From Candidatus Gastranaerophilales bacterium (GTDB lineage: Bacteria > Cyanobacteriota > Vampirovibrionia > Gastranaerophilales > Gastranaerophilaceae): 64,000 bases of DNA. Below, piece after piece: positions 10,054 to 58,387 of the stretch. The DNA is taken from NCBI GenBank assembly GCA_947588785.1, contig CANPZN010000002.1, positions 2,123 to 66,122 on the forward strand, written 5' to 3'. A model generated the notes under the pieces. The model saw only the letters and a program-made list of their open reading frames with translations. It did not search any database and was not told the DNA's origin. The position numbers were made by a program, and so were the translations under genes. The number at the start of each line of letters is the position of its first letter. Position 1 is the stretch's first letter.

Positions 10054-11127
10054 ATGGGTGACGAGAATAAACAATTTGAAGCAAGTCAGCAAAAACTTCA
10101 AAAGGCACGAAAAGAAGGTCAGGTAGTAAAATCAAAAGATTTTTCTACGGCACTTGCGTTGCTTGTAATGTTTATAGTTATATTAAAATTGTCGCCATTT
10201 ATATGGAATCAAATATCGCAATTATTTGTGTATTTATATGATAAAATTCCTGATAAACATTTGGATGAAATAGGATATACACATTTACTTGTATCAATAA
10301 TATTACCGTCAGCACTAATAATCGGGCCGATACTTGTAATGGCTGGATTTATGGGGATACTTGGGGATTTTATACAAGTAGGGCCTTTGGTAACAACTAA
10401 ACCATTAGAGCCGAAATTAGATAAATTAAATCCTGCAAAGTATTTTAAAAACTTAATGTCACCAAAAACTTTTTTTGAATTAGTAAAAAATATTCTGAAA
10501 GTAGTGATATTGGGAATAATAGGGTGGATGGTATATAATTCTCACTTGAGTGCAATAATAGGTTTAGCGAGTATAGATAATAGTTTTGCAGTATTAAATG
10601 AATTCGGATCATTAATAATAGATTTCGTAATGAAAGCATGTTTAGCTTTTTTGATCATAGCAGCAGCGGATTATGGGATGGTTCGATGGAAATTTTTACA
10701 AGATCAGAAAATGTCATTTAAAGAAGTAAAAGATGAATATAAGAACTCAGAAGGAGATCCGCATGTTAAAGCTGCATTAAGGCAAAGAAGACAGCAGATG
10801 TTACAGCAAAAAATGATGGATTCTGTGCCTGATTGTGATTTTATTGTAACTAATCCAACACATATAGCATGCGGATTAAAGTATGATCCGAAAGAGATGG
10901 AATCGCCAAAATTATTGGCAAAAGGAACAGAACTGTTTGCAAAAAAGATAATAGAAATAGCGAAGCAACATTCGATACCTGTAATAGAAAATCCGCCTGT
11001 AGCAAGAGCTATATTCAGGCTTGTAGAGGTTAATTCATCGATTCCTCCCGAATTATATAAAGCAGTAGCAGAAATTTTGATTTTTGTATACAATTTGCGT
11101 AATCCGAAAAAAGGTAGTAAAATATAA
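10054..11127 (+). CDS. flhB: Flagellar export apparatus protein FlhB
   Basis: N-terminal FEASQQKLQKARKEGQV, four TM segments, NPTH autocleavage motif (VTNPTHIA). Confidence 0.92.
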   Translation: MGDENKQFEASQQKLQKARKEGQVVKSKDFSTALALLVMFIVILKLSPFIWNQISQLFVYLYDKIPDKHLDEIGYTHLLVSIILPSALIIGPILVMAGFMGILGDFIQVGPLVTTKPLEPKLDKLNPAKYFKNLMSPKTFFELVKNILKVVILGIIGWMVYNSHLSAIIGLASIDNSFAVLNEFGSLIIDFVMKACLAFLIIAAADYGMVRWKFLQDQKMSFKEVKDEYKNSEGDPHVKAALRQRRQQMLQQKMMDSVPDCDFIVTNPTHIACGLKYDPKEMESPKLLAKGTELFAKKIIEIAKQHSIPVIENPPVARAIFRLVEVNSSIPPELYKAVAEILIFVYNLRNPKKGSKI

Positions 11128-14176: not shown

Positions 14177-15949
14177 ATGAGTAATTATATAGCAAATAAT
14201 TCAAATATATTCAGTCAATTTCCGGTTTATAAACAGGAAATAGCTATAGGTGCGAAGAAAAAATATCCTGATAAAGGAGTAAATGGTTCATTAAAAGAAA
14301 CGGAAAATAATTCAAAGAAGAAGAAAGTATTATTTGGATCTACACTGGCTTCATCAATATTAACAGCAGGTATAGTAGGATTTATTTTTGTAAAAGGTCC
14401 TCATGGAAGTGCATTAAAGAAACTTTCAAAATTTTCAAATTATCTAAGTGAGAATATACAAAAAACAAATCATCTAAAAACAAAAGATATCCCGACAAAG
14501 ACAATTTATTATTCAAAAAAAACAGTAAAAAAAGTAATTGATATAATGGAAGCCAGTGCAAATTTTACTGCGATAAAAGATTGGATTGCAAATAAAATAC
14601 TGAGGAAAAATAAATTTACGGGCAAATTTGCAGATAAATCAACATCTTTTTTTCAAAAGATAGTAGATAAAACATTGAGTAAAAAATATGATAAAGTTGA
14701 AGTAAAGGTAAAAGATTTAACATCATTATTGAAACATTATAGTATTGCGAATTTGTCAAAGTTAGATGAATCCCAGCAAGCTCAAAAAATTAGTATAAAA
14801 GGTATAACGAAAACGTTAAAAGAGTGGATTGAGATATTATCTTATCATACCGAACAATTACAAACTAATTATGATAAAAATTTTAGTCTGGGGGCAAGAA
14901 AACAGAGGAATATAAAACGTTCAAAGTTATTGGGTAATATATCAGAGAAAATAGAAGAAAGATTTTTCAAAGATAAGAAATCTTTATTGAAAATACAAAA
15001 TTATAAAACATATGTAACGGAAGATGCAGCTAAAAATGCTCATAGTATTTTAAAAGAAGATATATATAAAGCAAAAAGACAAATTACAAATAATATAAAA
15101 TCTATATATGAATATATAAAAACTGATTTAAATAATTTCTCAAAAATTGTAAAACCTAATGATGATTCATCAAAAAAGATAGTTCAAGGTATAAGACAGC
15201 AATTGGAAGAATTTAAAACTTCGACGGATTCAAATAATAAAAAAATAGCTGATAAATTGTTAAAATCAATAGATTCATTATTAGAATCATTACAAGGTAA
15301 TAATAAATATACGGAAGAAGAAATAGAACAATTAACACAAATAATAACAGATATAAAGAATTCGCTAAACTTGTCAAAAAATAATCCCAAAGGTTCAATA
15401 GATGAAATTATTTCAATATTACAAGGACTAAATGCTTCAACATTAAGAAATAGCACAGAAAGAATTATATCCACTGAAAATTTGAAAGAATATAGTCATT
15501 TGGCAGGAAAAATAAATAAAGATTTAGAAAAAGCGGTAGAATTAGAAAATGGAGAATATTTTTTGAAACAGGCTGAACTAAAAGTAGGGTCGGCTGCAAC
15601 TGATTTATTATCACTAATATTTCCGATAGGAGTAGGAACATACTCAATAGCAACAAAAGAAGATAAAGAAGAGAGAATATCTGCGACATTGACAACATGT
15701 GTTCCATTGGTAGGTACGTTTGCAACATTTGTATACGGAACAGTCAAAATGTTTTCAGGAGCAAAAAATTTGATGTTTTCACTTGTAACCGGAGCAGTAA
15801 TAAGTAAAATAGGTCATTATGCAGATAAGTTATATAAAAAATATAAAGATACCGGTTCATTTGTAAACGTAGTAAAAGATGAATATGATTCAATTGTAAC
15901 AGATATTACGCCTGGTCAAAATAAAATATCTGAAAAGGACAAGAAATAA
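14177..15949 (+). CDS. Hypothetical membrane protein with long coiled-coil-like K/E/N-rich middle
   Basis: 590 aa. N-proximal TM (LASSILTAGIVGFIFV) and a C-terminal cluster of hydrophobic segments. No family recognised. Confidence 0.55.
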   Translation: MSNYIANNSNIFSQFPVYKQEIAIGAKKKYPDKGVNGSLKETENNSKKKKVLFGSTLASSILTAGIVGFIFVKGPHGSALKKLSKFSNYLSENIQKTNHLKTKDIPTKTIYYSKKTVKKVIDIMEASANFTAIKDWIANKILRKNKFTGKFADKSTSFFQKIVDKTLSKKYDKVEVKVKDLTSLLKHYSIANLSKLDESQQAQKISIKGITKTLKEWIEILSYHTEQLQTNYDKNFSLGARKQRNIKRSKLLGNISEKIEERFFKDKKSLLKIQNYKTYVTEDAAKNAHSILKEDIYKAKRQITNNIKSIYEYIKTDLNNFSKIVKPNDDSSKKIVQGIRQQLEEFKTSTDSNNKKIADKLLKSIDSLLESLQGNNKYTEEEIEQLTQIITDIKNSLNLSKNNPKGSIDEIISILQGLNASTLRNSTERIISTENLKEYSHLAGKINKDLEKAVELENGEYFLKQAELKVGSAATDLLSLIFPIGVGTYSIATKEDKEERISATLTTCVPLVGTFATFVYGTVKMFSGAKNLMFSLVTGAVISKIGHYADKLYKKYKDTGSFVNVVKDEYDSIVTDITPGQNKISEKDKK

Positions 15950-16000: not shown

Positions 16001-16792
16001 ATGAAAAAAAGTATTTCATTCTTGTTAATAATAATATATCTAACATCTGTAGCGTATGCTTTGGAATTTGATACATCTATTGATGAAACAATAAGAAAAA
16101 GTTATAATTTGTCAACAAGTGAATCAGAGTTACCTGCCTTGCCAAAAGTTGTACCGACAGATACACCTGAAATAAGTCAGGAAATATCATCTAATAGTGC
16201 AACCGGAAAAAGATATGTAATAAAAAAAGGTACAAAAATAACTTTGGTATCAAAGAATACAATATCAGACAGACTATCCAAAGGAAGTAAAGTCGGTTTT
16301 TATTGTAAAAATGGATTTACCACAAAAGAAAATGCAATAATACCTGCCGGAACTGTTTTAAAAGCTACGGTAATGGATTCACATAAACCTCAATTAACAG
16401 GAAATGGCGGATTAGTAGAATTAGCAATAAATGAAATATATTATAACGGAGTTAAATCAAAAATAGAAACAAAACTAAGCAAGGCAAACTCAAAAAAAGT
16501 TTATATGAGTAATATAAAAGGTAAACGGTCATATTGGAAAAATTTTATAAAAGTGACAAACCCCGGGCGTAAGTTTTTTGGAGCAACACAAACAGCCGCA
16601 ACAGCCATGTCTGCAATACCAATAATAAACCTGGTATCATTTATTCCAATATTTGGAGGTGCTGTAGTTTATACAGTTAATATGATAACTGCTCCGGTAA
16701 TCTCAATATTTACAAAAGGCGGATCAGTAAGTATTCCTGCGGGAAGCGTATTTGAAGTAAAAATATCAGAAGATATTTCAATAAACGGATAG
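16001..16792 (+). CDS. Hypothetical exported/membrane protein
   Basis: Signal peptide MKKSISFLLIIIYLTSVAYA and C-terminal hydrophobic segments (AIPIINLVSFIPIFGGAVVY). Confidence 0.55.
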   Translation: MKKSISFLLIIIYLTSVAYALEFDTSIDETIRKSYNLSTSESELPALPKVVPTDTPEISQEISSNSATGKRYVIKKGTKITLVSKNTISDRLSKGSKVGFYCKNGFTTKENAIIPAGTVLKATVMDSHKPQLTGNGGLVELAINEIYYNGVKSKIETKLSKANSKKVYMSNIKGKRSYWKNFIKVTNPGRKFFGATQTAATAMSAIPIINLVSFIPIFGGAVVYTVNMITAPVISIFTKGGSVSIPAGSVFEVKISEDISING

Positions 16793-17023: not shown

Positions 17024-18121
17024 ATGTTAAGAGCGGGAATTGTAGGGCTACCAAATGTAGGAAAATCAACGTTATTTAATGCATTGACATCGTCCAAAAA
17101 TGCACAAAGTGAAAATTATCCCTTTTGTACTATAGAACCTAATGTAGGAGTGGTAAGTGTTCCTGATGAAAGATTAATGGTATTGAAAGATATAGTTAAA
17201 ACAAATGTAGTAATACCTACGGCAATTGAATTTGTAGATATAGCAGGACTGGTAAAGGGTGCAAGTAAAGGTGAAGGTCTTGGAAATCAATTCTTGCATA
17301 ATATTCGAGAAGTAGATGCAATTATTCAAGTAGTAAGATGTTTTGATGATGAAAATACAATTCATGTTTCCGGAAAAATAAATCCTATTGATGATATAGA
17401 AACAATAAATACCGAACTTGCATTAAGTGATATGGCATCAATCGAAAGACGAATAGAAAGATTAAATAAACAGGTTAAAAGCGGAGATAAACAAGCAATA
17501 TTGGAGCATAAAGTATTAACGAAATTGAATGATTTACTTTCAGATGCCATGTTTATAAACATAGAAGAACATTTTGAAGAAGAAGAACTTGAGATAGCGA
17601 GAGCGACACAGTTAATGTGTATAAAACCCGTAATATATGCGGCAAATGTTAGTGAAACTGATCTTGCCAAAGGAAATGCCTATGTAGATAAGGTAAAAGA
17701 ATATGCTTCAAAACACGGAGCGGATGTTGTTGTAATATCTGCAAAAATAGAAGCAGAATTAGTAGATTTATCCCAGGAGGAAGCAAAGGCATATTTATCT
17801 GATTTGGGCGTACAAAATTCCGGTATTGAAAGAATGATACAATCAGTGTATAAACTTTTAAAATTAACGACATTTATTACAGCAGGAGAAAAAGAGGTAA
17901 GAGCATGGACAGTAAAGGCAGGCTCAAAAGCACCCCAAGCAGCAGGAGTTATACATACTGATTTTGAAAAAGGATTCATAAGGGCAGAAGTTACAGCATA
18001 CAAAGATTTTGTAGAAGCAGGTTCTTATGCGGTTGCAAGGGATAAAGGATTAACTAGATTAGAAGGTAAGGATTATATAATACAAGATGGAGATATAGTT
18101 CATTTTAGATTTAATGTCTAA
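17024..18121 (+). CDS. ychF: Ribosome-binding ATPase YchF
   Basis: [19 protein letters not shown]-loop, [11 protein letters not shown]-terminal TGS-like [11 protein letters not shown]. Confidence 0.95.
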
Positions 18122-18159
18122 TATAAAAGATTTACTATAATAAAAAAATGTGATAATAT

Positions 18160-18275
18160 CTTTGTATAAAGCGAGGAAATAAGGTGAAAATCCTAAACCG
18201 GACCGCGGCCGTTATAGTCGGAATACTCTTGTTTAATTTAATTGCGGAATCCAATTAAATATATGAGAGTTCCTT
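18160..18275 (+). promoter_or_regulatory. Candidate compact cobalamin riboswitch (class II / AdoCbl-variant-like) plus downstream hairpin
   Basis: Ordered blocks AAAGCG-AGGAAA-(4 nt)-GGTGAAAATCC-(15 nt)-CCGTTATAGTCGGAAT. GTAT(18164)/ATAC(18223) can close a P1. Followed by the ATTTAATTG-CGGAATC-CAATTAAAT hairpin. Confidence 0.45.
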
Positions 18276-18380
18276 ACATAATCTTTAATGAGCGTGTTAA
18301 AAAATATGCTTATTAAAATAATACCAAAATACACGATCAAAAGAAGTTTGATTGTTGAGTAAAAAGCAGTAAGGAAAATT

Positions 18381-19100
18381 ATGTCAGTATCAGTCACAAG
18401 CCCAAACACACAAAGAGCAGGATTATGTCCGCATGGACTTCCTCCCGCTGCTTGTCCAATATGTAGCGGAAATGGAGGTATGGGAGGAACGGGACGAATA
18501 AAAAATACACCTCCTCCAAAATCAACTGTGTCAAATGAATGGTCATGGATGAAATGTTATACAGCCGGTTTAATGATGAAATCCCAACAAGATAGAATAG
18601 AATCGGCAAAACTTGATTTTAAACGGGAAATAGAATCATATAAATTGTTACAAAAAATGGTAGATGCACTTGCTGATAAAATAAAATCGAATTTAGAAAA
18701 TATACAAAATTCCCTACCAAAACCTATTTCAATTCCGTTGCAGATAATAACAAATTTTATAGTAAAACCAATATTAAATTTAATTTCACAACTGCCTAAA
18801 ATAATGGAAAATATTGCAAATTTCGGGCAAAATTTGCGGAATTTGATTCAACAGGCCGGTGAAAAATTAACAGCAGTAATAGGTGAAATGAAAAATTTTG
18901 TAAAAAGTAAAATTGAAGATATAAAGAAACGGGCAAAAAAAATTTTTTTGTTTTTTCTATCTGAAATAGAAGATAAAGATTATAAAAATGATGAATCATT
19001 AGAGGTCTTTAAATCAAGAGAGTTAAAAAAATATCTTTTAAAAATTATAAAAATGGTAAAGAAACAGGGTGAAAATGATACCGGAAACTCTGAAAAATAA
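18381..19100 (+). CDS. Hypothetical protein with N-terminal Cys/His knuckle
   Basis: CPHGLPPAACPICSG near the N-terminus, Gly-rich linker, helical K/E/I-rich remainder. Confidence 0.5.
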   Translation: MSVSVTSPNTQRAGLCPHGLPPAACPICSGNGGMGGTGRIKNTPPPKSTVSNEWSWMKCYTAGLMMKSQQDRIESAKLDFKREIESYKLLQKMVDALADKIKSNLENIQNSLPKPISIPLQIITNFIVKPILNLISQLPKIMENIANFGQNLRNLIQQAGEKLTAVIGEMKNFVKSKIEDIKKRAKKIFLFFLSEIEDKDYKNDESLEVFKSRELKKYLLKIIKMVKKQGENDTGNSEK

Positions 19101-20646
19101 ATACGATATTTTAAGAAATAATAGAAATATAGCTCAAGAAAAAATAAAAAATAAAGAATTAAATAAAACGCTAAAAAGTGTTTTAATAAATAATCATATA
19201 AAAAATACTAATGAAAATATATCATTTGACGAAATTCAAGATTCATTATTAATTACTGATTCATCATCTTATTATTTAAAAAAAGAAAAAGAAGAAGAAA
19301 ACGGCTTTAATGAAAATAATGCTTTGAAACCAATTATAACAGCAACCGGAATACTTTTTGCCGGAGTAATAACATTAAGCAGTATGATAAAATTATCATC
19401 AAAAAATTTATTAAAAACAATGAATTTTGAACAACTTCCCGAATTAGCAACGAATATGAACATAAAGGAAGAAACTCATTTCGCAATATATAGAGCAATA
19501 AGAGATCCAAATACCAAAAATATATTGGGAGCTGCAGCAGTTTTTTTAATGAGCGGAATAACAATTGCCGCTAAAAATTTTGTTGACGGAACAAAAGAAA
19601 TATGGTTAAAAAAACAAGCTGCAGATATAGAAAGAGATTTGCAAGAAAATTTAATAAAAGTTGAAACAGATTCTTTTTCCGGAAAATTAAATGTCGTAAA
19701 TGATATGTTAAATCAAAATATAAAATATTTTGATTCTGTTTTAAATAATAAAAAAATAAATTCTAAAAATTCACAAATATTTTCCGAAATAATTTCATTT
19801 AAAAGTGAACATTTGAACGGCGTTGAAAAATCAATAGCAGAAGGCGATGACATATTAAATCAAAATTCTGAAACAGAAGAAAAAAACAGAAAAGATAAAA
19901 AAAGAAATATAAAATATGGATTATTATTGCTAGGTGTACTTTTAGGAGCATATGTTACAGGAAAAATCAGTTTTAAAAATATAAAGAAAACAATCGAAAA
20001 TACGGAAAAATATGCTACAAATTATGTAGAAAAAACAATAGAAGCAATAGATATAATGAAAGAGAAATCAGATCCAAAAGATTTGCCTCGTATAAAAGAG
20101 CTGTTACAGGCAATTTGTGCAAAGCCCGAATATGTCAGAGAAATTGGTCAAAAATATAACTTGAGTGAAGAAGAAATAAGAGAAATAATAGAATCAGTAA
20201 AGGAAGTAAAAAAGACAATTTTTGCGGACGCCCCGACAGCATTAGGAGGAATACCCAAAAAAATTCAATATTATTGCTATATAGATGAAAACAGAGGTCA
20301 TTTATATAATTGGATTATGAATCCTGATAATAAATTTACAAAATATTTATTTATGTCTTGTACAATAGCAAGTTCAATAGGTTATATTTTTAAAGAAGGC
20401 ATGGATGCCATAAAAGAAGTAACGGTGTTAAAAGAGAATTCTAAAACAGAATTAAATTTAAGAAAAAGGTTGGTAGATGTAGAGATTTCTAATTTTAAAT
20501 CAAAGAAAAATAGTGCCATTAGACCATTGATTGAAGATTTTACAAAACAAGCGGAATCAGGTCAAAAAACAAAAGAAGAATTAAAAGTTATAGCAGATAA
20601 TATATTAACGGAGACTAAAAATGGCCCTCCGTATGTTTATACATAG
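19069..20646 (+). CDS. Hypothetical polytopic membrane protein
   Basis: 525 aa. Overlaps the upstream ORF by 32 nt. TM segments [46 protein letters not shown]. Confidence 0.55.
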   Translation: MKMIPETLKNKYDILRNNRNIAQEKIKNKELNKTLKSVLINNHIKNTNENISFDEIQDSLLITDSSSYYLKKEKEEENGFNENNALKPIITATGILFAGVITLSSMIKLSSKNLLKTMNFEQLPELATNMNIKEETHFAIYRAIRDPNTKNILGAAAVFLMSGITIAAKNFVDGTKEIWLKKQAADIERDLQENLIKVETDSFSGKLNVVNDMLNQNIKYFDSVLNNKKINSKNSQIFSEIISFKSEHLNGVEKSIAEGDDILNQNSETEEKNRKDKKRNIKYGLLLLGVLLGAYVTGKISFKNIKKTIENTEKYATNYVEKTIEAIDIMKEKSDPKDLPRIKELLQAICAKPEYVREIGQKYNLSEEEIREIIESVKEVKKTIFADAPTALGGIPKKIQYYCYIDENRGHLYNWIMNPDNKFTKYLFMSCTIASSIGYIFKEGMDAIKEVTVLKENSKTELNLRKRLVDVEISNFKSKKNSAIRPLIEDFTKQAESGQKTKEELKVIADNILTETKNGPPYVYT

Positions 20647-20656
20647 GGGATAGGCA

Positions 20657-21109
20657 ATGATAACATATAATCCTAATTTATATACACAAGTCGGACAATT
20701 GGGTATCGGTGTGGAAAAACCTAATAGTGTGAGAAATTATTGTGTCTTTGATAATAAAAGGACAGAAGAAATATTAAAATATAAAGAAGAAGCATTGCCT
20801 TATATAGATTCATTTTTAAAGACCGTAAATACGGAAGAACAAGTGTTAGATGCACTGCAAGTACTTGATAAAATGTTGGATAAAAAAGTAAAAGGAATTG
20901 AAAAAATGTATCCGACTTTATCAAGATTTAATGATGTAACATCTCCGAATATTCAAGTTATGCTTGCCGGAATATACAGAAAAACGTTAATACCTGATGC
21001 ATTTGGCCCATTAAATAAAATGTTAATCAGGCAGACATTATATCCTAATTCATTATATTTTGATCCGACTGAAGAGATAGGCGGGGCAATTATGGAATAT
21101 TTAATATAG
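20657..21109 (+). CDS. Hypothetical protein (150 aa)
   Basis: ORF 10 nt after the previous stop with a GGGGATAGG SD-like tract. Helical, no family recognised. Confidence 0.5.
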   Translation: MITYNPNLYTQVGQLGIGVEKPNSVRNYCVFDNKRTEEILKYKEEALPYIDSFLKTVNTEEQVLDALQVLDKMLDKKVKGIEKMYPTLSRFNDVTSPNIQVMLAGIYRKTLIPDAFGPLNKMLIRQTLYPNSLYFDPTEEIGGAIMEYLI

Positions 21110-21151
21110 TGATTTATGTTTCATATATTGGATAAAAATTAATATATAAAT

Positions 21152-21540
21152 TGGTGTGCCGAAACTAAACAAAATTGAATCAGAACAATCAGCCAGAATT
21201 TGTCCGAGAAAATTTTGCAATAAGTAACGTGAGCGAAATTTGAGAAAGGGTGAAACAAACCCGAGTAGCGAAGGGGCTGAAATGAGCGGCAGCGATAGCG
21301 AGCGAATGACAAGCCCCAAGACAGCAAATTTCAAGACAGCGAAATTTGCGAAAGGGTACCGGCAAATCCGGTTTAAAATTGGATTAACGGAATTTCGTAC
21401 AGCCAAAGGCGGACTGGCTTGTACGAAAGGGGATTTCAAGACAATTTAAATGAGTTAAACTAAACTTATAAAGTGCCACTGCACCAAACCCGAGAATGTG
21501 AGGGCAAAGGGAACACAAGGTTACGACACTAGGTTCAAAT
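21152..21540 (+). repeat. Composite array (R7) containing nearly every module of the repeat family
   Basis: About 390 bp of G+C-rich sequence in an AT-rich background. Sub-blocks recur at 16792-16927, 22924-23068, 23993-24051, 25233-25376, 29375-29585 and 36443-36542. Confidence 0.85.
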
Positions 21541-21629
21541 TTTTTAAACAAGATTCAAACATCTATAATTTGTAATAAATAAATATATTAAGGGAAAAAG
21601 AAAAAATATAATAAAATTTAAAATAAAAA

Positions 21630-21719
21630 CGGAGAAGGAGAGATTCGAACTCTCGGTGCAGATTACTCCACACAACACCTTAGCAGGGTGCCGCCTTAAA
21701 CCTACTCGGCCACTTCTCC
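21630..21719 (-). tRNA. tRNA-Ser (anticodon GCU)
   Basis: Manually folded. Acceptor GGAGAAG/CTTCTCC+G, anticodon loop CTGCTAA, about 20-nt variable arm, T-arm GAGAG-TTCGAAT-CTCTC. CCA is not encoded. Confidence 0.9.
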
Positions 21720-21843
21720 ACCAAAGTATGATTATACTAACATAAATATTACTTCAATACAAGTATAAAAATCTTAATATTAAAAACAAATATATAGATT
21801 TTATAATCTGGTTAAGATAATATGACATTGAGGATATGGTTTT

Positions 21844-23992: not shown

Positions 23993-24051
23993 TGTCTGAG
24001 AAAATTTCGCAATAATGAACGTGAACGAAATTTTGCGACACTAGATTAAAT
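23993..24051 (+). repeat. Repeat-family copy (R9): hairpin module plus terminal module
   Basis: TGTCTGAGAAAATTTCGCAATAATGAACGTGAACGAAATTTTGCGACACTAGATTAAAT with a 9-bp stem AAAATTTCG/CGAAATTTT. Confidence 0.75.
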
Positions 24052-24139: not shown

Positions 24140-25291
24140 CTAAAAATCAAAATTTAATTCTTGCTGAATGTTTAAAGAACCAAGGTTAAAGCATTTACAA
24201 GCAAAAGGAGTTAATTTTCTACCCCGTGGTGTCCTTTGAATAAAACCTTTTTGAAGTAAATAAGGTTCATAAACATCTTCAATAGTTTTTGAATCTTCCC
24301 CTAAAGCGGTAGCAATAGTTTCAATTCCAACGGGGCCTCCATTGTATTTATTTGCAATTAAATTAATAAGGCTGCGATCAGTATTATCAAGTCCGTATTT
24401 ATCAATTTGCAAAATATCAAGTGATTGATTAGCTAATTTTTCATTAATAAATCCATTTGATTTTACAATCGCATAATCTCTTACTCGCTTAACTAAACGA
24501 TTAGCAATTCTTGGAGTACCTCTTGATCTTTTTGCAATAGCATAAGCTCCATTTTCATCAATTTCAATTTCTAATATTTGAGCAGTTCTTTTTATAACTT
24601 TTGCAAGTTCATCTTCAGTATAAAATTCAAGTCGATGAATAATTCCAAATCTGTCTCTTAACGGGCCGGATAAAGAACCTGCTTTTGTAGTAGCACCAAT
24701 AAGCGTAAATTTGGGAATGGGAATTCTAATTGATTTCAAAGTTTGAGCTTTACCTGTAGTCATATCTAAATAAAAATCTTCCATAGCCGGATATAAAATT
24801 TCTTCAGATATTTTGTTTAATCTGTGTATTTCATCTATAAATAAAATATCACCTGCTTTTAATGCCATTAAAATACCAATGATATCTCTGGGGCGTTCAA
24901 AAGAAGGTGCAGATGTAATTTTTATATTAGCATTCATCTCAGTAGCGATAACAGAAGCAAGAGTAGTTTTTCCTAATCCTGGCGGGCCGTAAAATAATAT
25001 GTGATCCAGAGGAAGTTCTCTCTTCTTCGCAGCTTCAATAGATATTTTTAAAGTCGACTTTAATGAACTTTGTCCAACATAATCATCAAAATGTTTCGGT
25101 CTTATAGTAGATTCAAAAGATGTATCAAAAGGAATGTGTTCAGATGTTGTATCTTCATTTTTTAACTTTTCAAATTTATTATTATCATCATCTGAAATTA
25201 TAGCCACGGGTTCTTCTTTCTTATTTGTGCTTGCTGTCTTGAAATTTGCTGTCTTGGGGCTTGTCATTCGCTCGCTATTGCTGCCGCTCAT
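24140..25291 (-). CDS. ruvB: Holliday junction branch-migration helicase RuvB
   Basis: [28 protein letters not shown], and a C-terminal winged helix. The annotated ATG and first ~20 codons lie inside repeat R10; an alternative GTG start is possible at 25207. Confidence 0.95.
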
Positions 25292-25376
25292 TTCAGCCCC
25301 TTAGCTACTCGGGTTCACTTTGTTTCACCCTTTCGCAAATTTCGCTCTCTTTCCGAACCAACAAAATTTTCTCGGA
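25233..25376 (-). repeat. Repeat-family copy (R10), inverted partner of 21203-21340
   Basis: Hand alignment: the reverse complement of 25233-25313 equals 21260-21340 with 2 mismatches in 81 nt. The outer part shares TCCGAGAAAATTTTG and AGCGAAATTTG.GAAAGGGTGAAACAAA. Confidence 0.9.
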
Positions 25377-27966: not shown

Positions 27967-29679
27967 TTATTTAAATCTTTTATAAAAACTTCCGCCAACT
28001 TCAAATAAATTTGTATGTTTTTTTACATAATCATTAAAAGTTTCTATTTGGGTTCTGTCAATACCGGTATCTAAATCATAGCTAGGCACAACAGTTTCAA
28101 AAGCTGTAAGCATTCCTTTAGATTTTTCTTGTAATGTGTTAATAAAATTGATTACCCTTGGAAATTCATGTGAATCTTTTTCATCATAGTAATGAGATAA
28201 ATAAAATGGAGCACAAATTGCAATAATAGGGTGTTGTGATTCTTTTGAGAGGCAATCAATTAAATCATCAAAAGGATTTTCAGCAGCAGAAACGACTTTT
28301 CCTTTTTCTTCATCATAATGAGTTGAATATTCTTCAAATATGGATTTTATTGTTTTATTTAATTCTTTGCCTTTTATGATATCAGAGTCAATGGCAGAAA
28401 ATTCAGAATCATTAGATCCTTTATTAATTACATATAAATTATTGAATATGTCTTCAGATTCTTCAAGAACATCTTTAGGAGTCATGTAATTTCTTCCTAT
28501 TGCAAGATCACCTTTAGTTTCAACATATTCTCTGGCACGCCAATAAAGATTGGAAACTGTAAAATCTTTATTATATTTATGTCTGTTTTGTTCAGCGAAT
28601 TCAATAACGGTATATCCGAATTCAGGATATAATTGAGTAACCTTTTTTATAAAATTAATAATAGTATTTCTTCTTCCTTTAATAATATTTTGAAGGAATG
28701 TAGAAAAATTTTCGGAAAAAGGATTAATACCATAAACAAGCATTTCACTATTTTCATAACCAATAAAAGACCCGGGAGCTTCATGGGCAAAAGTCAGTTT
28801 TACAGCGGGAACAAATTTTAAATGTTTAAATTTTTCAGGATTATCATTAATAATTCTTATTGCGTGTTTAACACCTTCAACGGTATCTCTGTCTGTAAGT
28901 GCAAAAATAAAATCTTTTCCTGTTTGTTTATAATATTTATTTGAAAATTTTGCAATATTTTCAAGAATATCAAAAATATTTTCTTGTCCGTTGGAGTAAC
29001 TGCTGTGATAATCCAGATCAATAAAATAAATACCTTTTTCTTGATTTTGTTTAGAAGAGATAAAATTTTCTTTATTTAACTGAGGCAGTAATTGTTTTAA
29101 TTCAGAAGGAGTTACTATGCTTTGTAAATTTGAAGTTTGTATGGGTTTCCATGTAAATTGGCTTAAACCTTGAGCTAATTCAAAAATATATTTATCTTTT
29201 GTTCCATTATCATTAATAATAACAGGTTCAGTCATAATAGTTTTTCCGGGGAAAAGAGAAGAAAGGAATTTTCCGCTAAAAGATATATTTTTTGTATTAT
29301 CCGCACAATTAGAATTTAATTTAGTGTCACGACATTGTGCTTGCAGTCTTGAATTTTCCTTTATCACATTTCGCTTCGCTATGGATACAGGCTCATTGAT
29401 TTTGCCTATCGGCTCAATAATTCGCTTTGTATCAAATGAGTGCTTCACAGCATTTCGTTTTTCGTTCAGCTCGTCCTCACATTCTCGGGTTTGTTCACTT
29501 TTGCTCGACTTCACCCTACGGAAAATTCGCTCATCTGAGCGGTAAAGTTGCTCACCTTTTAAAAATGCCACTCCAAAATTTATGGAAAATGAATCAGAAG
29601 TTGTGGAATTATGCGCAAAAGAATTTCTTTTTCCTTGATAAAAGTATTTATTATATATAACTGAATTTTGAATTTTCAT
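27967..29679 (-). CDS. PHP (TrpH/YciV-like) domain protein with degenerate metal-binding motifs and a repeat-derived N-terminal insert
   Basis: DLDYHSSYSNG (cf. DLHxHTxxSDG), ALTDRDTVEG (cf. TDHD), MLVYGINP, GGSFYKR (cf. GSDFH). GGTGA SD 5 nt upstream, 13 nt after the upstream stop. Confidence 0.4.
   Translation of the reverse strand: MKIQNSVIYNKYFYQGKRNSFAHNSTTSDSFSINFGVAFLKGEQLYRSDERIFRRVKSSKSEQTRECEDELNEKRNAVKHSFDTKRIIEPIGKINEPVSIAKRNVIKENSRLQAQCRDTKLNSNCADNTKNISFSGKFLSSLFPGKTIMTEPVIINDNGTKDKYIFELAQGLSQFTWKPIQTSNLQSIVTPSELKQLLPQLNKENFISSKQNQEKGIYFIDLDYHSSYSNGQENIFDILENIAKFSNKYYKQTGKDFIFALTDRDTVEGVKHAIRIINDNPEKFKHLKFVPAVKLTFAHEAPGSFIGYENSEMLVYGINPFSENFSTFLQNIIKGRRNTIINFIKKVTQLYPEFGYTVIEFAEQNRHKYNKDFTVSNLYWRAREYVETKGDLAIGRNYMTPKDVLEESEDIFNNLYVINKGSNDSEFSAIDSDIIKGKELNKTIKSIFEEYSTHYDEEKGKVVSAAENPFDDLIDCLSKESQHPIIAICAPFYLSHYYDEKDSHEFPRVINFINTLQEKSKGMLTAFETVVPSYDLDTGIDRTQIETFNDYVKKHTNLFEVGGSFYKRFK
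29375..29585 (-). repeat. Repeat-family copy (R12) embedded in frame in the 27967-29679 ORF
   Basis: CCTCACATTCTCGGGTTT (29475-29492) is the reverse complement of 21486-21503. GGATACAGGCT (29383-29393) equals 36475-36485. GAGCGAATTTTCCGTAGGGTGAAG-type block on the minus strand. Confidence 0.8.
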
Positions 29680-36442: not shown

Positions 36443-36542
36443 ATTTAATACAGTGTAGCAATCGTAAAGTTATCGGATACAGGCTTACTCGCTTCAAGTG
36501 TTCGCTGCTTTGTAACGTTCCTTATTGCAAAATTTTCTCTGA
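36443..36542 (-). repeat. Repeat-family copy (R13), inverted orientation
   Basis: The reverse complement reads CAGAGAAAATTTTGCAATAAGGAACGTTACAAAGC...GCTACACTGTATTAAAT. Shares GGATACAGGCT with R12. Confidence 0.75.
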
Positions 36543-58321: not shown

Positions 58322-58387
58322 AGAAAATTTTGCGATAGGAAAAGTAAGCGAAATTTATATAGGCAAAGTGCGGTAATGGATAAATTA
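58322..58387 (+). repeat. Repeat-family copy (R15)
   Basis: AGAAAATTTTGCGATAGGAAAAGTAAGCGAAATTTATATAGGCAAAGTGCGGTAATGGATAAATT. Confidence 0.7.

Follow-up and report, generated by a model that had tools for sequence, protein, structure and literature searches.

What kind of leader RNA precedes the three genes that lie behind ychF in Candidatus Gastranaerophilales, and in which direction would it control them? In contig CANPZN010000002.1, of which we analysed a stretch of 64,000 nucleotides (nt; the window, numbered from its first letter), ychF (17024-18121) is followed by a 259-nt spacer and then by three open reading frames (ORF1, ORF2 and ORF3), the first of which starts at 18381. An earlier note on this DNA, made from its letters (the original prediction), had proposed that this spacer encodes a class-II cobalamin riboswitch controlling an operon of uncharacterised proteins. 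Our analysis suggests that the 5' untranslated region of this operon is likely to contain a class-II cobalamin riboswitch (AdoCbl-II, env8-like) of the OFF type. The folding of the leader gave z = -4.4 relative to dinucleotide shuffles, and the blocks that had been pointed out were all found in place: AAAGCG-AGGAAA at 18167-18179, GGTGAAAATCC at 18183-18193 and CCG-TTATAGT-CGG-AAT at 18209-18224, followed by a 9-bp hairpin (ATTTAATTG/CAATTAAAT, loop CGGAATC) at 18236-18260 and by the pairing GGAATACTCT...AGAGTTCC in which this hairpin is nested. The three ORFs were also present as predicted (Table 1).

The leader matched the Rfam covariance model of the class-II aptamer (RF01689, AdoCbl-II) with 32.8 bits (gathering score, 36.5), at E = 4.8e-6 in a 401-nt search and E = 7.7e-4 in a search of the whole 64-kb window, on both strands and with 4227 families. 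This was the sole riboswitch-type match in the window, where a scan at the Rfam gathering threshold returned tRNA only; a candidate second riboswitch at 11095-11107 (TTGCGTAATCCGA) was discarded as a chance match within coding sequence, with no Rfam match. Scanning one genome for each GTDB species gave at least 411 loci that encode a relative of ORF1, and our comparative set consisted of the best 80 of these 411, 79 of which had sufficient upstream sequence. Nearly all of the 80 come from metagenome-assembled genomes of Candidatus Gastranaerophilales or other Melainabacteria, with a few deposited under different names. RF01689 was matched in all 18 orthologous leaders scanned by E-value (33.5-48.4 bits), on the + strand and 70-125 nt before the ORF1 homologue, and the gathering threshold was passed by 8 of 11 further loci and by 20 of the 29 scanned leaders overall, with scores of up to 49.2 bits. 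The aptamer motif was located 70-200 nt ahead of the start codon in 78 of the 79 evaluable loci. Within clan CL00101, RF01689 outscored RF00174 (class I) in every locus examined, and the class I hallmarks, a P6 extension and P7-P11 (P, J and L denote paired, joining and loop regions), were not found in P6, which is a 3-bp hairpin without extension, or around it. The covariance-model check suggested with the original prediction thus turned out positive for both the window copy and its orthologues, and the class-II claim is supported by the model match, by the orthologues above the gathering score and by the covariation of the helices and of the kissing loop described below. The window copy is a slightly sub-threshold member of a family that Rfam's own model accepts elsewhere, and the evidence supports assigning the leader RNA to a known riboswitch class (AdoCbl-II), with a somewhat unusual architecture that lacks P1 and has a separate sequestor hairpin. 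The sole evaluable locus without the aptamer motif is L021 (JAFUEV010000059.1), where the end of ychF lies 127 nt before the ORF1 homologue and no riboswitch motif is found upstream.

The aptamer core is a four-way junction of P3, P4, P5 and P6. We counted pairs in a fixed-column alignment (A4) built from helix-parsed segments of the 79 leaders, and found standard pairs in 95.6% of the cells, relative to 80.8% with shuffled partners and 30-48% with partners slid by 1-3 columns. Both-sided changes were seen in 13 of 20 pairs. P3, P4 and P5 covary, the outer P3 pair being G-C in 42 leaders, A-U in 18, U-A in 5 and C-G in 3; P6 is invariant and hence uninformative. As an independent check, RNAalifold recovered P3-P6 de novo from a plain MAFFT alignment of 31 full leaders. 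The unpaired segments J3/4 (GGAAA), L4 (GUGAAA) and L6 to J6/3 (..AGUCNGA..) were invariant or nearly so in the 79 leaders and the same as the model consensus. The B12-box GCCAC, which is the 3' strand of P3, is absent, and (A/G)CUN is found instead, with the NAG:CUN pairing kept through four Watson-Crick pair types. The original prediction had listed a weak B12 box as a caveat. This was correct in that GCCAC is missing, but it does not cast doubt on the riboswitch, since the 3-bp P3 covaries; the box looks weak because the consensus P3 has been shortened to 3 bp and its sequence has drifted while the pairing was kept.

The 9-bp hairpin downstream of the core is P13 and not, as had been suspected, the tail module of a repeat family: a blastn search of the leader against the window found no other copy, and the hairpin loop motif occurs in the window at chance frequency (29 matches, with 21 +/- 4.8 expected). 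In the window, CCG of L5 (18203-05) and CGG of L13 (18245-47) form a kissing loop. In the parsed orthologues, the aptamer is followed at a distance of 3-16 nt by a hairpin whose loop starts with CG (10 of these hairpins were placed manually), and both P13 and the kissing pairs covary. The first pair is G-C in 71 leaders and A-U in 4, all four loci with L5 GACCA having a loop that starts with UG. The second is C-G in 74 and G-C in 1 (L015, with L5 GAAGG and loop CCAAAUC), and the third is CG in 20, UA in 10, AU in 1 and unpaired in 44, with A opposite U in 10 of the 10 U-loci. An L5-L13 kissing loop is a hallmark regulatory contact in cobalamin riboswitches (PMC5028336), and the identical CCG:CGG kissing loop has been proven in metE of Priestia megaterium (PMC10327014).

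Upstream of the aptamer, promoter elements are conserved. The extended -10 pattern TGnTAnnnT occurred in the 45 nt that precede P3 in 54 of 78 leaders, relative to 2 of 78 control windows, and stood nearly always 11-17 nt from P3; TTTAC(A/T/C) was found in close orthologues at the place of the -35-like hexamer of the window, and a -35-like motif in 39 loci. From this conservation we infer that the transcript begins 4-10 nt before P3, which would be too near for the consensus 6-bp P1 and 7-nt J1/3. Complementarity between the 5' and 3' flanks gave a median z of -0.07, with no general pairing that could form P1, and in the window the potential for P1 comes to a 4-bp AAGC:GUUU helix only. The P1 of the Rfam model (UUGUAU/GUUUAA) was rejected on the same flank test, and also because its 5' strand would lie largely upstream of the predicted start. 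The P1 that the original prediction had offered, GUAU (18164-67) with AUAC (18223-26), fared no better: AUAC consists of J6/3 and the first P3 base, the 5' half is situated at the predicted start or before it, and orthologues with AAUG have no matching 5' strand.

One subclade (L015, L023, L026, L029, L030 and relatives) has GUUAAUA as its first transcribed bases, a copy of the P13 3' strand, and in L015 a 10-nt stretch (CCGGUUAAUA) is common to the 5' leader and that strand. Pairing of the GUUAAUA leader to the P13 5' strand might create a helix that resembles P1 and is in competition with P13. Such pairing is real in that subclade, and we rejected it as a general feature, as it is absent in the window and in the deep clades.

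The expression platform lies downstream of P13. In the orthologues, the order is aptamer, short linker, P13, purine-rich strand, a hairpin holding the Shine-Dalgarno (SD) sequence, U5-7 and AUG, the SD region reading (G)UAAGGA-U5-7-AUG and the SD being the 3' half of a hairpin such as UCCUUAC-loop-GUAAGGA. The window also has an SD-sequestering helix, which the original prediction had not detected, between anti-SD 18271-18277 and SD 18369-18375. The purine-rich strand and the first anti-SD bases are complementary to the 3' edge of the aptamer (GG of the P6 3' strand, J6/3, the P3 3' strand and the linker). In the minimum-free-energy fold this complementarity forms an anti-sequestor helix of 18225-32 with 18263-70, and the duplex CGGAAUACUCUUGUU:UAUGAGAGUUCCU, GG:CC included, has an energy of -10.4 kcal/mol. 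In 69 of 79 leaders, two or more bases of the anti-SD took part in the best anti-sequestor duplex, and two or more bases of P6 or J6/3 did so in 75 of 79. As the pairing GGAATACTCT...AGAGTTCC takes the aptamer's own 3' strand, it and the folded aptamer are mutually exclusive, and it would represent a conserved anti-sequestor that competes with SD sequestration, which is standard OFF-switch logic. The invariant GGAA of J6/3 acts in it as a mimic of the SD (AAGGA). Covariation of the anti-SD with the P4 5' strand (UAAGG) was considered and rejected, since the P4 variants CGAG and GAAG occur without a matching change. Because the window has no U-tract, control there would be translational only; as the original prediction had cautioned, no terminator-like site was found between 17900 and 21700. 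In the orthologues, the SD hairpin is compact with a U-tract after it and may also terminate transcription.

To model the holo state, we folded the predicted transcript while imposing the aptamer helices and keeping the core blocked. In the window, the AUG had an unpaired probability of 0.66 without this constraint and 0.10 with it, and the SD one of 0.10 and 0.02, respectively, the drop at the AUG arising because AUAUGA (18261-66) pairs with 18379-84. A paired test over the 79 leaders for the whole -14..+3 region gave p = 0.04. Taken together with the architecture, the calculation for the window suggests that the B12-bound state is probably the one in which translation is OFF.

We propose the following model. 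The transcript would start near 18165, and the aptamer (18173-18228) would be closed by a 3-bp P3 with no P1, P13 docking onto it via the L5-L13 kissing loop. Without corrinoid, GGAAUACUCUUGU (18220-32) would pair with AUGAGAGUUCC (18263-73), so that the first anti-SD bases would be occupied, the SD and AUG would be free, and the operon would be translated. Upon binding of a corrinoid, an activity that we infer for this leader, P3, J6/3 and the kissing loop would be locked and the downstream strand released; UUCCUUAC would then pair with the SD GUAAGGAA, and AUAUGA would pair across the start codon, repressing ORF1-3. The three proteins would form a B12-repressed, probably membrane-associated complex.

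Table 1. Features of the leader and operon in window coordinates.
Feature	Position	Strand	Remarks
-35-like hexamer TTTACT	18131..18136	+	17 nt upstream of -10 hexamer
Extended -10 TG-a-TAATAT	18151..18159	+	predicted transcription start ~18164-18166
RF01689 AdoCbl-II match (class-II cobalamin riboswitch aptamer)	18162..18236	+	covers full model
Aptamer core, four-way junction	18173..18228	+	parse of 79 leaders, pair counts, RNAalifold
P3	GAG 18173-75 : CUC 18226-28	+	
J3/4	18176-80	+	GAAAU
P4/L4	18181-95	+	loop UGAAAAU
P5/L5	18198-208	+	loop GACCG 18201-05
P6/L6	18209-21	+	loop UUAUAGU
Putative anti-sequestor 5' strand GGAAUACUCUUGU	18220..18232	+	P6 3' strand, J6/3, P3 3' strand, linker
J6/3	18222-25	+	AAUA
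P13 hairpin, 9 bp	18236..18260	+	L13 CGGAAUC 18245-51
Predicted switching strand and anti-SD	18261..18277	+	18263-73 pairs with aptamer 3' strand (apo)
AUAUGA	18261-66	+	can pair with 18379-84 over start codon (holo-like)
Anti-SD UUCCUUAC	18270-77	+	pairs with SD 18369-76
Two hairpins (18284-18317, 18333-18355)	18284..18355	+	inside loop of anti-SD:SD helix
SD region and ORF1 ATG	18369..18383	+	GUAAGGAA 18369-76; ATG 18381-83
ORF1, 239 aa	18381..19100	+	Cys/His knuckle, then long helical hairpin
ORF2, 525 aa from GTG 19069	19069..20646	+	
ORF3, 150 aa	20657..21109	+	all-helical ARM/HEAT-like repeat

The operon itself is well conserved, ORF1 being followed by ORF2 in 78 and by ORF3 in 63 of the 80 loci. 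The flanking genes vary by clade, ychF being upstream in 25 of 80 loci only, and because the riboswitch and ORF1-3 are kept together while the flanks vary, they travel as one unit. We also scanned metagenome contigs with the family core pattern CCGCRRCCGT..AGYCGGAANNCT, which gave 124 matches with an ORF1 homologue just downstream in 41; 25 further matches with a complete aptamer had other genes downstream. Genes other than ORF1 behind the aptamer core included nrdD (L121, L141, L161, L168), a gene for a DUF6580 protein resembling an energy-coupling factor (ECF) S-component (L087, L183) and a DUF4430 gene (L105). B12 regulons typically contain nrdD and transporters of the ECF S-component type. 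Opposite-strand pairs of riboswitch cores, about 165 nt apart, occur in L161 (1758(-)/1943(+)), L103 (566(-)/753(+)), L129 (8630(-)/8816(+)) and L172 (3414(-)/3598(+)); one core of the pair faces the ORF1 operon, and the other faces nrdD in L161, the only contig where that gene could be read. In L067 and L072, nrdD lies 1.8 kb upstream and has a riboswitch of its own, that of L067 not being reported at the gathering threshold. The nrdD leaders (L141, L161, L168, L121, L067, L072) are canonical env8-like AdoCbl-II riboswitches with P1 present and a short P13, and since the ORF1 type is not env8-like in this way, the same bacteria carry two architecturally distinct class-II switches.

Behind a complete AdoCbl-II aptamer in other, environmental organisms, a family-less protein of about 280-330 amino acids recurs on metagenome contigs of GC 0.32-0.47 (L086, L096, L115, L134, L143, L169, L176, L178). 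Its N-terminus reads MSNKETLLQEKVIESWV... in L115 and L176, and the other contigs encode more divergent relatives.

Several observations weigh against an OFF-type class-II riboswitch ahead of this operon. The window copy itself fell short of the Rfam gathering score, which is an operational cut-off and not a structural feature, and its lower score is partly due to an A18181.A18195 mismatch at the outermost P4 pair, seen in this copy only and in 0 of 78 relatives. The columns for the covariation counts were picked with knowledge of the pairing, so that these counts lean toward the structure. When the anti-sequestor was compared with shuffled partners, z fell below -1.64 in just 21 of 79 leaders and below -2.33 in 14 of 79. 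The anti-SD:SD helix of the window spans a 91-nt insertion, self-folding into two hairpins, which is specific to this genome (the orthologue loop is 5-15 nt) and has no other copy in the window. In the modelling of the 79 leaders, the shift in SD accessibility was weak (0.32 apo and 0.22 holo), and the spacer plus AUG showed no decrease in the holo state (0.50 apo and 0.55 holo). As this effect is weak, the OFF direction rests on the architecture and on the calculation for the window. Finally, profile comparisons of ORF1-3 with BtuB, BtuF, BtuCD, ECF S-components, DUF4430 and cobalt transporters yielded no significant match.

Some of these points bear on the sign of regulation. If corrinoid removed a helix stacked on the SD hairpin, it would activate ORF1-3, which would then have a B12-dependent or B12-handling role. 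Consistent with such an arrangement, minimum-energy folds contain both the alternative helix and the SD hairpin, abutting each other, the accessibility differences among the orthologues are small and mixed in sign, and an activating corrinoid riboswitch is known (PMC10327014). We nevertheless regard activation as unlikely, as in most leaders 2-5 bases of the anti-SD also belong to the alternative helix, an arrangement usual for anti-sequestors, and as the accessibility of both the SD and the AUG falls in the window with the aptamer forced. To our knowledge, nearly all characterised cobalamin riboswitches repress, which also speaks for an OFF switch here.

A former cobalamin riboswitch might instead be decaying in this genome, with its platform uncoupled and ORF1-3 expressed constitutively. 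The window copy has retained every junction and loop position that does not vary in the family, its kissing loop is a perfect CCG:CGG, and both the anti-sequestor and the anti-SD:SD pairings have been kept despite the insertion, which folds into two self-contained hairpins and in this way draws the strands close to each other. We therefore consider decay improbable, even though this is the lowest-scoring copy seen (32.8 bits), with a unique A.A at the outer P4 pair and an SD helix that has a 91-nt loop to close, and even though the related genome L021 has lost the riboswitch entirely.

It is also conceivable, although quite doubtful, that a relative of the class-II family has shifted its ligand and now senses cobinamide, another cobamide or a non-corrinoid. 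P1 is absent, P3 is down to 3 bp and GCCAC has become (A/G)CUN, and the two types have diverged, as the sibling nrdD riboswitch still has P1 and a platform of the env8 kind. However, the unpaired positions of RF01689 have been kept (J3/4 GGAAA, L4 GUGAAA, L5 ACC and L6-J6/3 AGUCGGAA), the kissing loop is canonical, and corrinoid riboswitches are in any case known to recognise several corrinoids (PMC9600662). A chance resemblance, a ychF terminator or 3' untranslated region, or a copy of an intergenic repeat, to which the sub-threshold score, the ease with which hairpins arise in an AT-rich genome and the repeat-module likeness seen in the original prediction might point, can be dismissed on the window-wide E = 7.7e-4, on conservation with the operon and not with ychF (25 of 80 loci), on the covariation, and on the lack of a second copy in the window or of a terminator-like site within 17900-21700.

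If an OFF-type class-II riboswitch is accepted, the interest of the locus lies in the operon, since this signpost points at three conserved proteins without known relatives and ties them firmly to B12 status. ORF1-3 had no Pfam or NCBIfam match above noise, which bears out the original prediction of uncharacterised proteins, and ORF1 and ORF3 had no match among PDB sequences. ORF1 carries an invariant N-terminal motif, CPHGLPx3CPxC, and an invariant Cys59 (alignment A1), and its family is compact, with 136 homologue clusters, none of them named. Its AlphaFold2 (AF2) model has long helices at 56-111 and 114-193 with low confidence (predicted local distance difference test, pLDDT, 62.6) and was too poor for a fold search. 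ORF2 has 3-4 hydrophobic segments with long K/E-rich helical stretches between them, a topology that does not look transporter-like, and strictly conserved motifs including the C-terminal NGPP(Y/F)VY(S/T). Its start is more likely to be ATG 19075 than GTG 19069, as judged from the preceding GGGUG and from the fit to orthologue N-termini (MIPETL against MQIEAL); the predicted overlap of ORF1 and ORF2 is present but comes to 26 nt with this start rather than 32. ORF3 is the most conserved of the three, with about 75% identity between clades that have about 54% in ORF1. Its AF2 model (pLDDT 94.5; predicted template modelling score, pTM, 0.88) is an eight-helix ARM/HEAT-like repeat, for which a Foldseek search of the PDB gave armadillo repeat proteins as its best hits, at a non-significant E of 0.076 or worse. 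The 1542 homologues of ORF3 carry no informative name, apart from one JGI label of 'pentatricopeptide repeat protein', and the family is small, with 119 clusters among 1.84 billion representatives. The few distant members that carry a name come from Melainabacteria or Vampirovibrio; we set aside these distant ORF3-like proteins of Vampirovibrio and other Melainabacteria, which stand in unrelated contexts with no riboswitch.

The composition of ORF1-3 suggests a membrane-associated complex held by a peptide-binding scaffold. Genes behind cobalamin riboswitches have repeatedly proved to encode B12 transporters, B12 binders or B12-independent isozymes, and we hypothesize that ORF1-3 could be corrinoid uptake or binding components. 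In view of the regulation, our best and most economical guess at their role is corrinoid acquisition or handling, the main alternative being a B12-independent bypass, as for nrdD. More tentatively, ORF1-3 might constitute a corrinoid-linked machine that has not been described before and is confined to Gastranaerophilales and close Melainabacteria, made up of a coiled-coil protein with a Cys/His knuckle, a protein with sparse membrane spans and a conserved NGPPYVY tail, and a small ARM-repeat protein. This machine would serve as a new route of B12 acquisition or handling, or as a B12-independent substitute for a B12-dependent process, and B12 would turn it off via a class-II riboswitch that lacks P1 and in which the GGAA of J6/3 mimics the SD. 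A literature search for Gastranaerophilales together with cobalamin riboswitches found nothing specific. The operon is a good lead to an undescribed B12-linked system, and offers a testable entry into the B12 physiology of Melainabacteria, an uncultured, gut-associated sister lineage of cyanobacteria. The leader would also add a natural class-II aptamer that works without P1 and with a separate sequestor hairpin.

The ORF1-type leaders share with the AdoCbl-II family (RF01689; prototype env8HyCbl) the four-way junction P3-P6 with J3/4 GGAAA and L4 GUGAAAxUC, a short P5 with a C-rich L5, P6 CCG-UUAUAGU-CGG followed by J6/3 AAU(A/G), and the L5-L13 kissing loop to a hairpin a few nt downstream (PMC5028336). 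They differ from it in lacking P1, the RNA apparently starting 4-10 nt before P3 at a conserved promoter, and in a P3 of 3 bp (NAG:CUN), whereas the family has GGUGG:CCACC. Their P13 is long, with a contiguous stem of mostly 4-14 bp, and the ribosome-binding site (RBS) lies outside it, in a separate downstream hairpin with an anti-sequestor linking it to the aptamer. The corrinoid riboswitch of P. megaterium metE (PMC10327014) has in common with them the L5 CCG : L13 CGG kissing loop, regulation by alternative helices downstream of P13 and not by an RBS inside L13, and a U-tract after the final hairpin (here in the orthologues). However, metE is a class I riboswitch with P1 and peripheral helices, and its antiterminator uses the P13 3' strand, whereas here the P6 3' strand, J6/3 and the P3 3' strand of the aptamer would be used. 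The nrdD AdoCbl-II riboswitches (L141, L161, L168, L067, L072) are found in the same bacteria and have the same core, AAG-GAAAG...CCGCAGCCGU..AGUCGGAAUGCUU, but they have a P1 (ACUGA:UCAGU), a short P13 (CCA-CGGAAAUC-UGG) and an SD (GGGAGA) within P13, none of which is present in the ORF1 type. Among proteins encoded behind B12 riboswitches are BtuB/BtuFCD, ECF-CbrT, BtuM and BtuG. ORF1-3 resemble these proteins and DUF4430 in gene position, in the membrane-embedded ORF2 and in the conserved Cys/His of ORF1, but have no sequence similarity to them, and differ in the topology of ORF2 and in ORF3, which is an ARM-like scaffold.

Elsewhere in the window, a comparatively GC-rich intergenic repeat family occupies 21195-21440, 25233-25352 (inverted), 23999-24033, 36515-36542 and 58322-58356, as well as 21485-21514 with 29464-29493. 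Among its recurring modules are GAAAATTTTGCAATAAG..CGTGAGCGAAATTT and GGGTGAAACAAACCC, and one 83-nt stretch has a 98% inverted copy 3.9 kb away; the family matched nothing in Rfam and is not similar to the riboswitch leader. A tRNA-Ser(GCT) gene lies at 21629-21720 (-), and the strand opposite to it gave a spurious match to RF04351, a plastid 3' untranslated region family (42 bits, gathering score 68). Two further family-less proteins are encoded upstream of ychF, at 14177-15949 (590 amino acids; a K-rich coiled coil with C-terminal hydrophobic segments) and 16001-16792 (263 amino acids), and their place upstream of ychF is conserved in the clade of the window, in 12 and 14 of the 80 loci, respectively.

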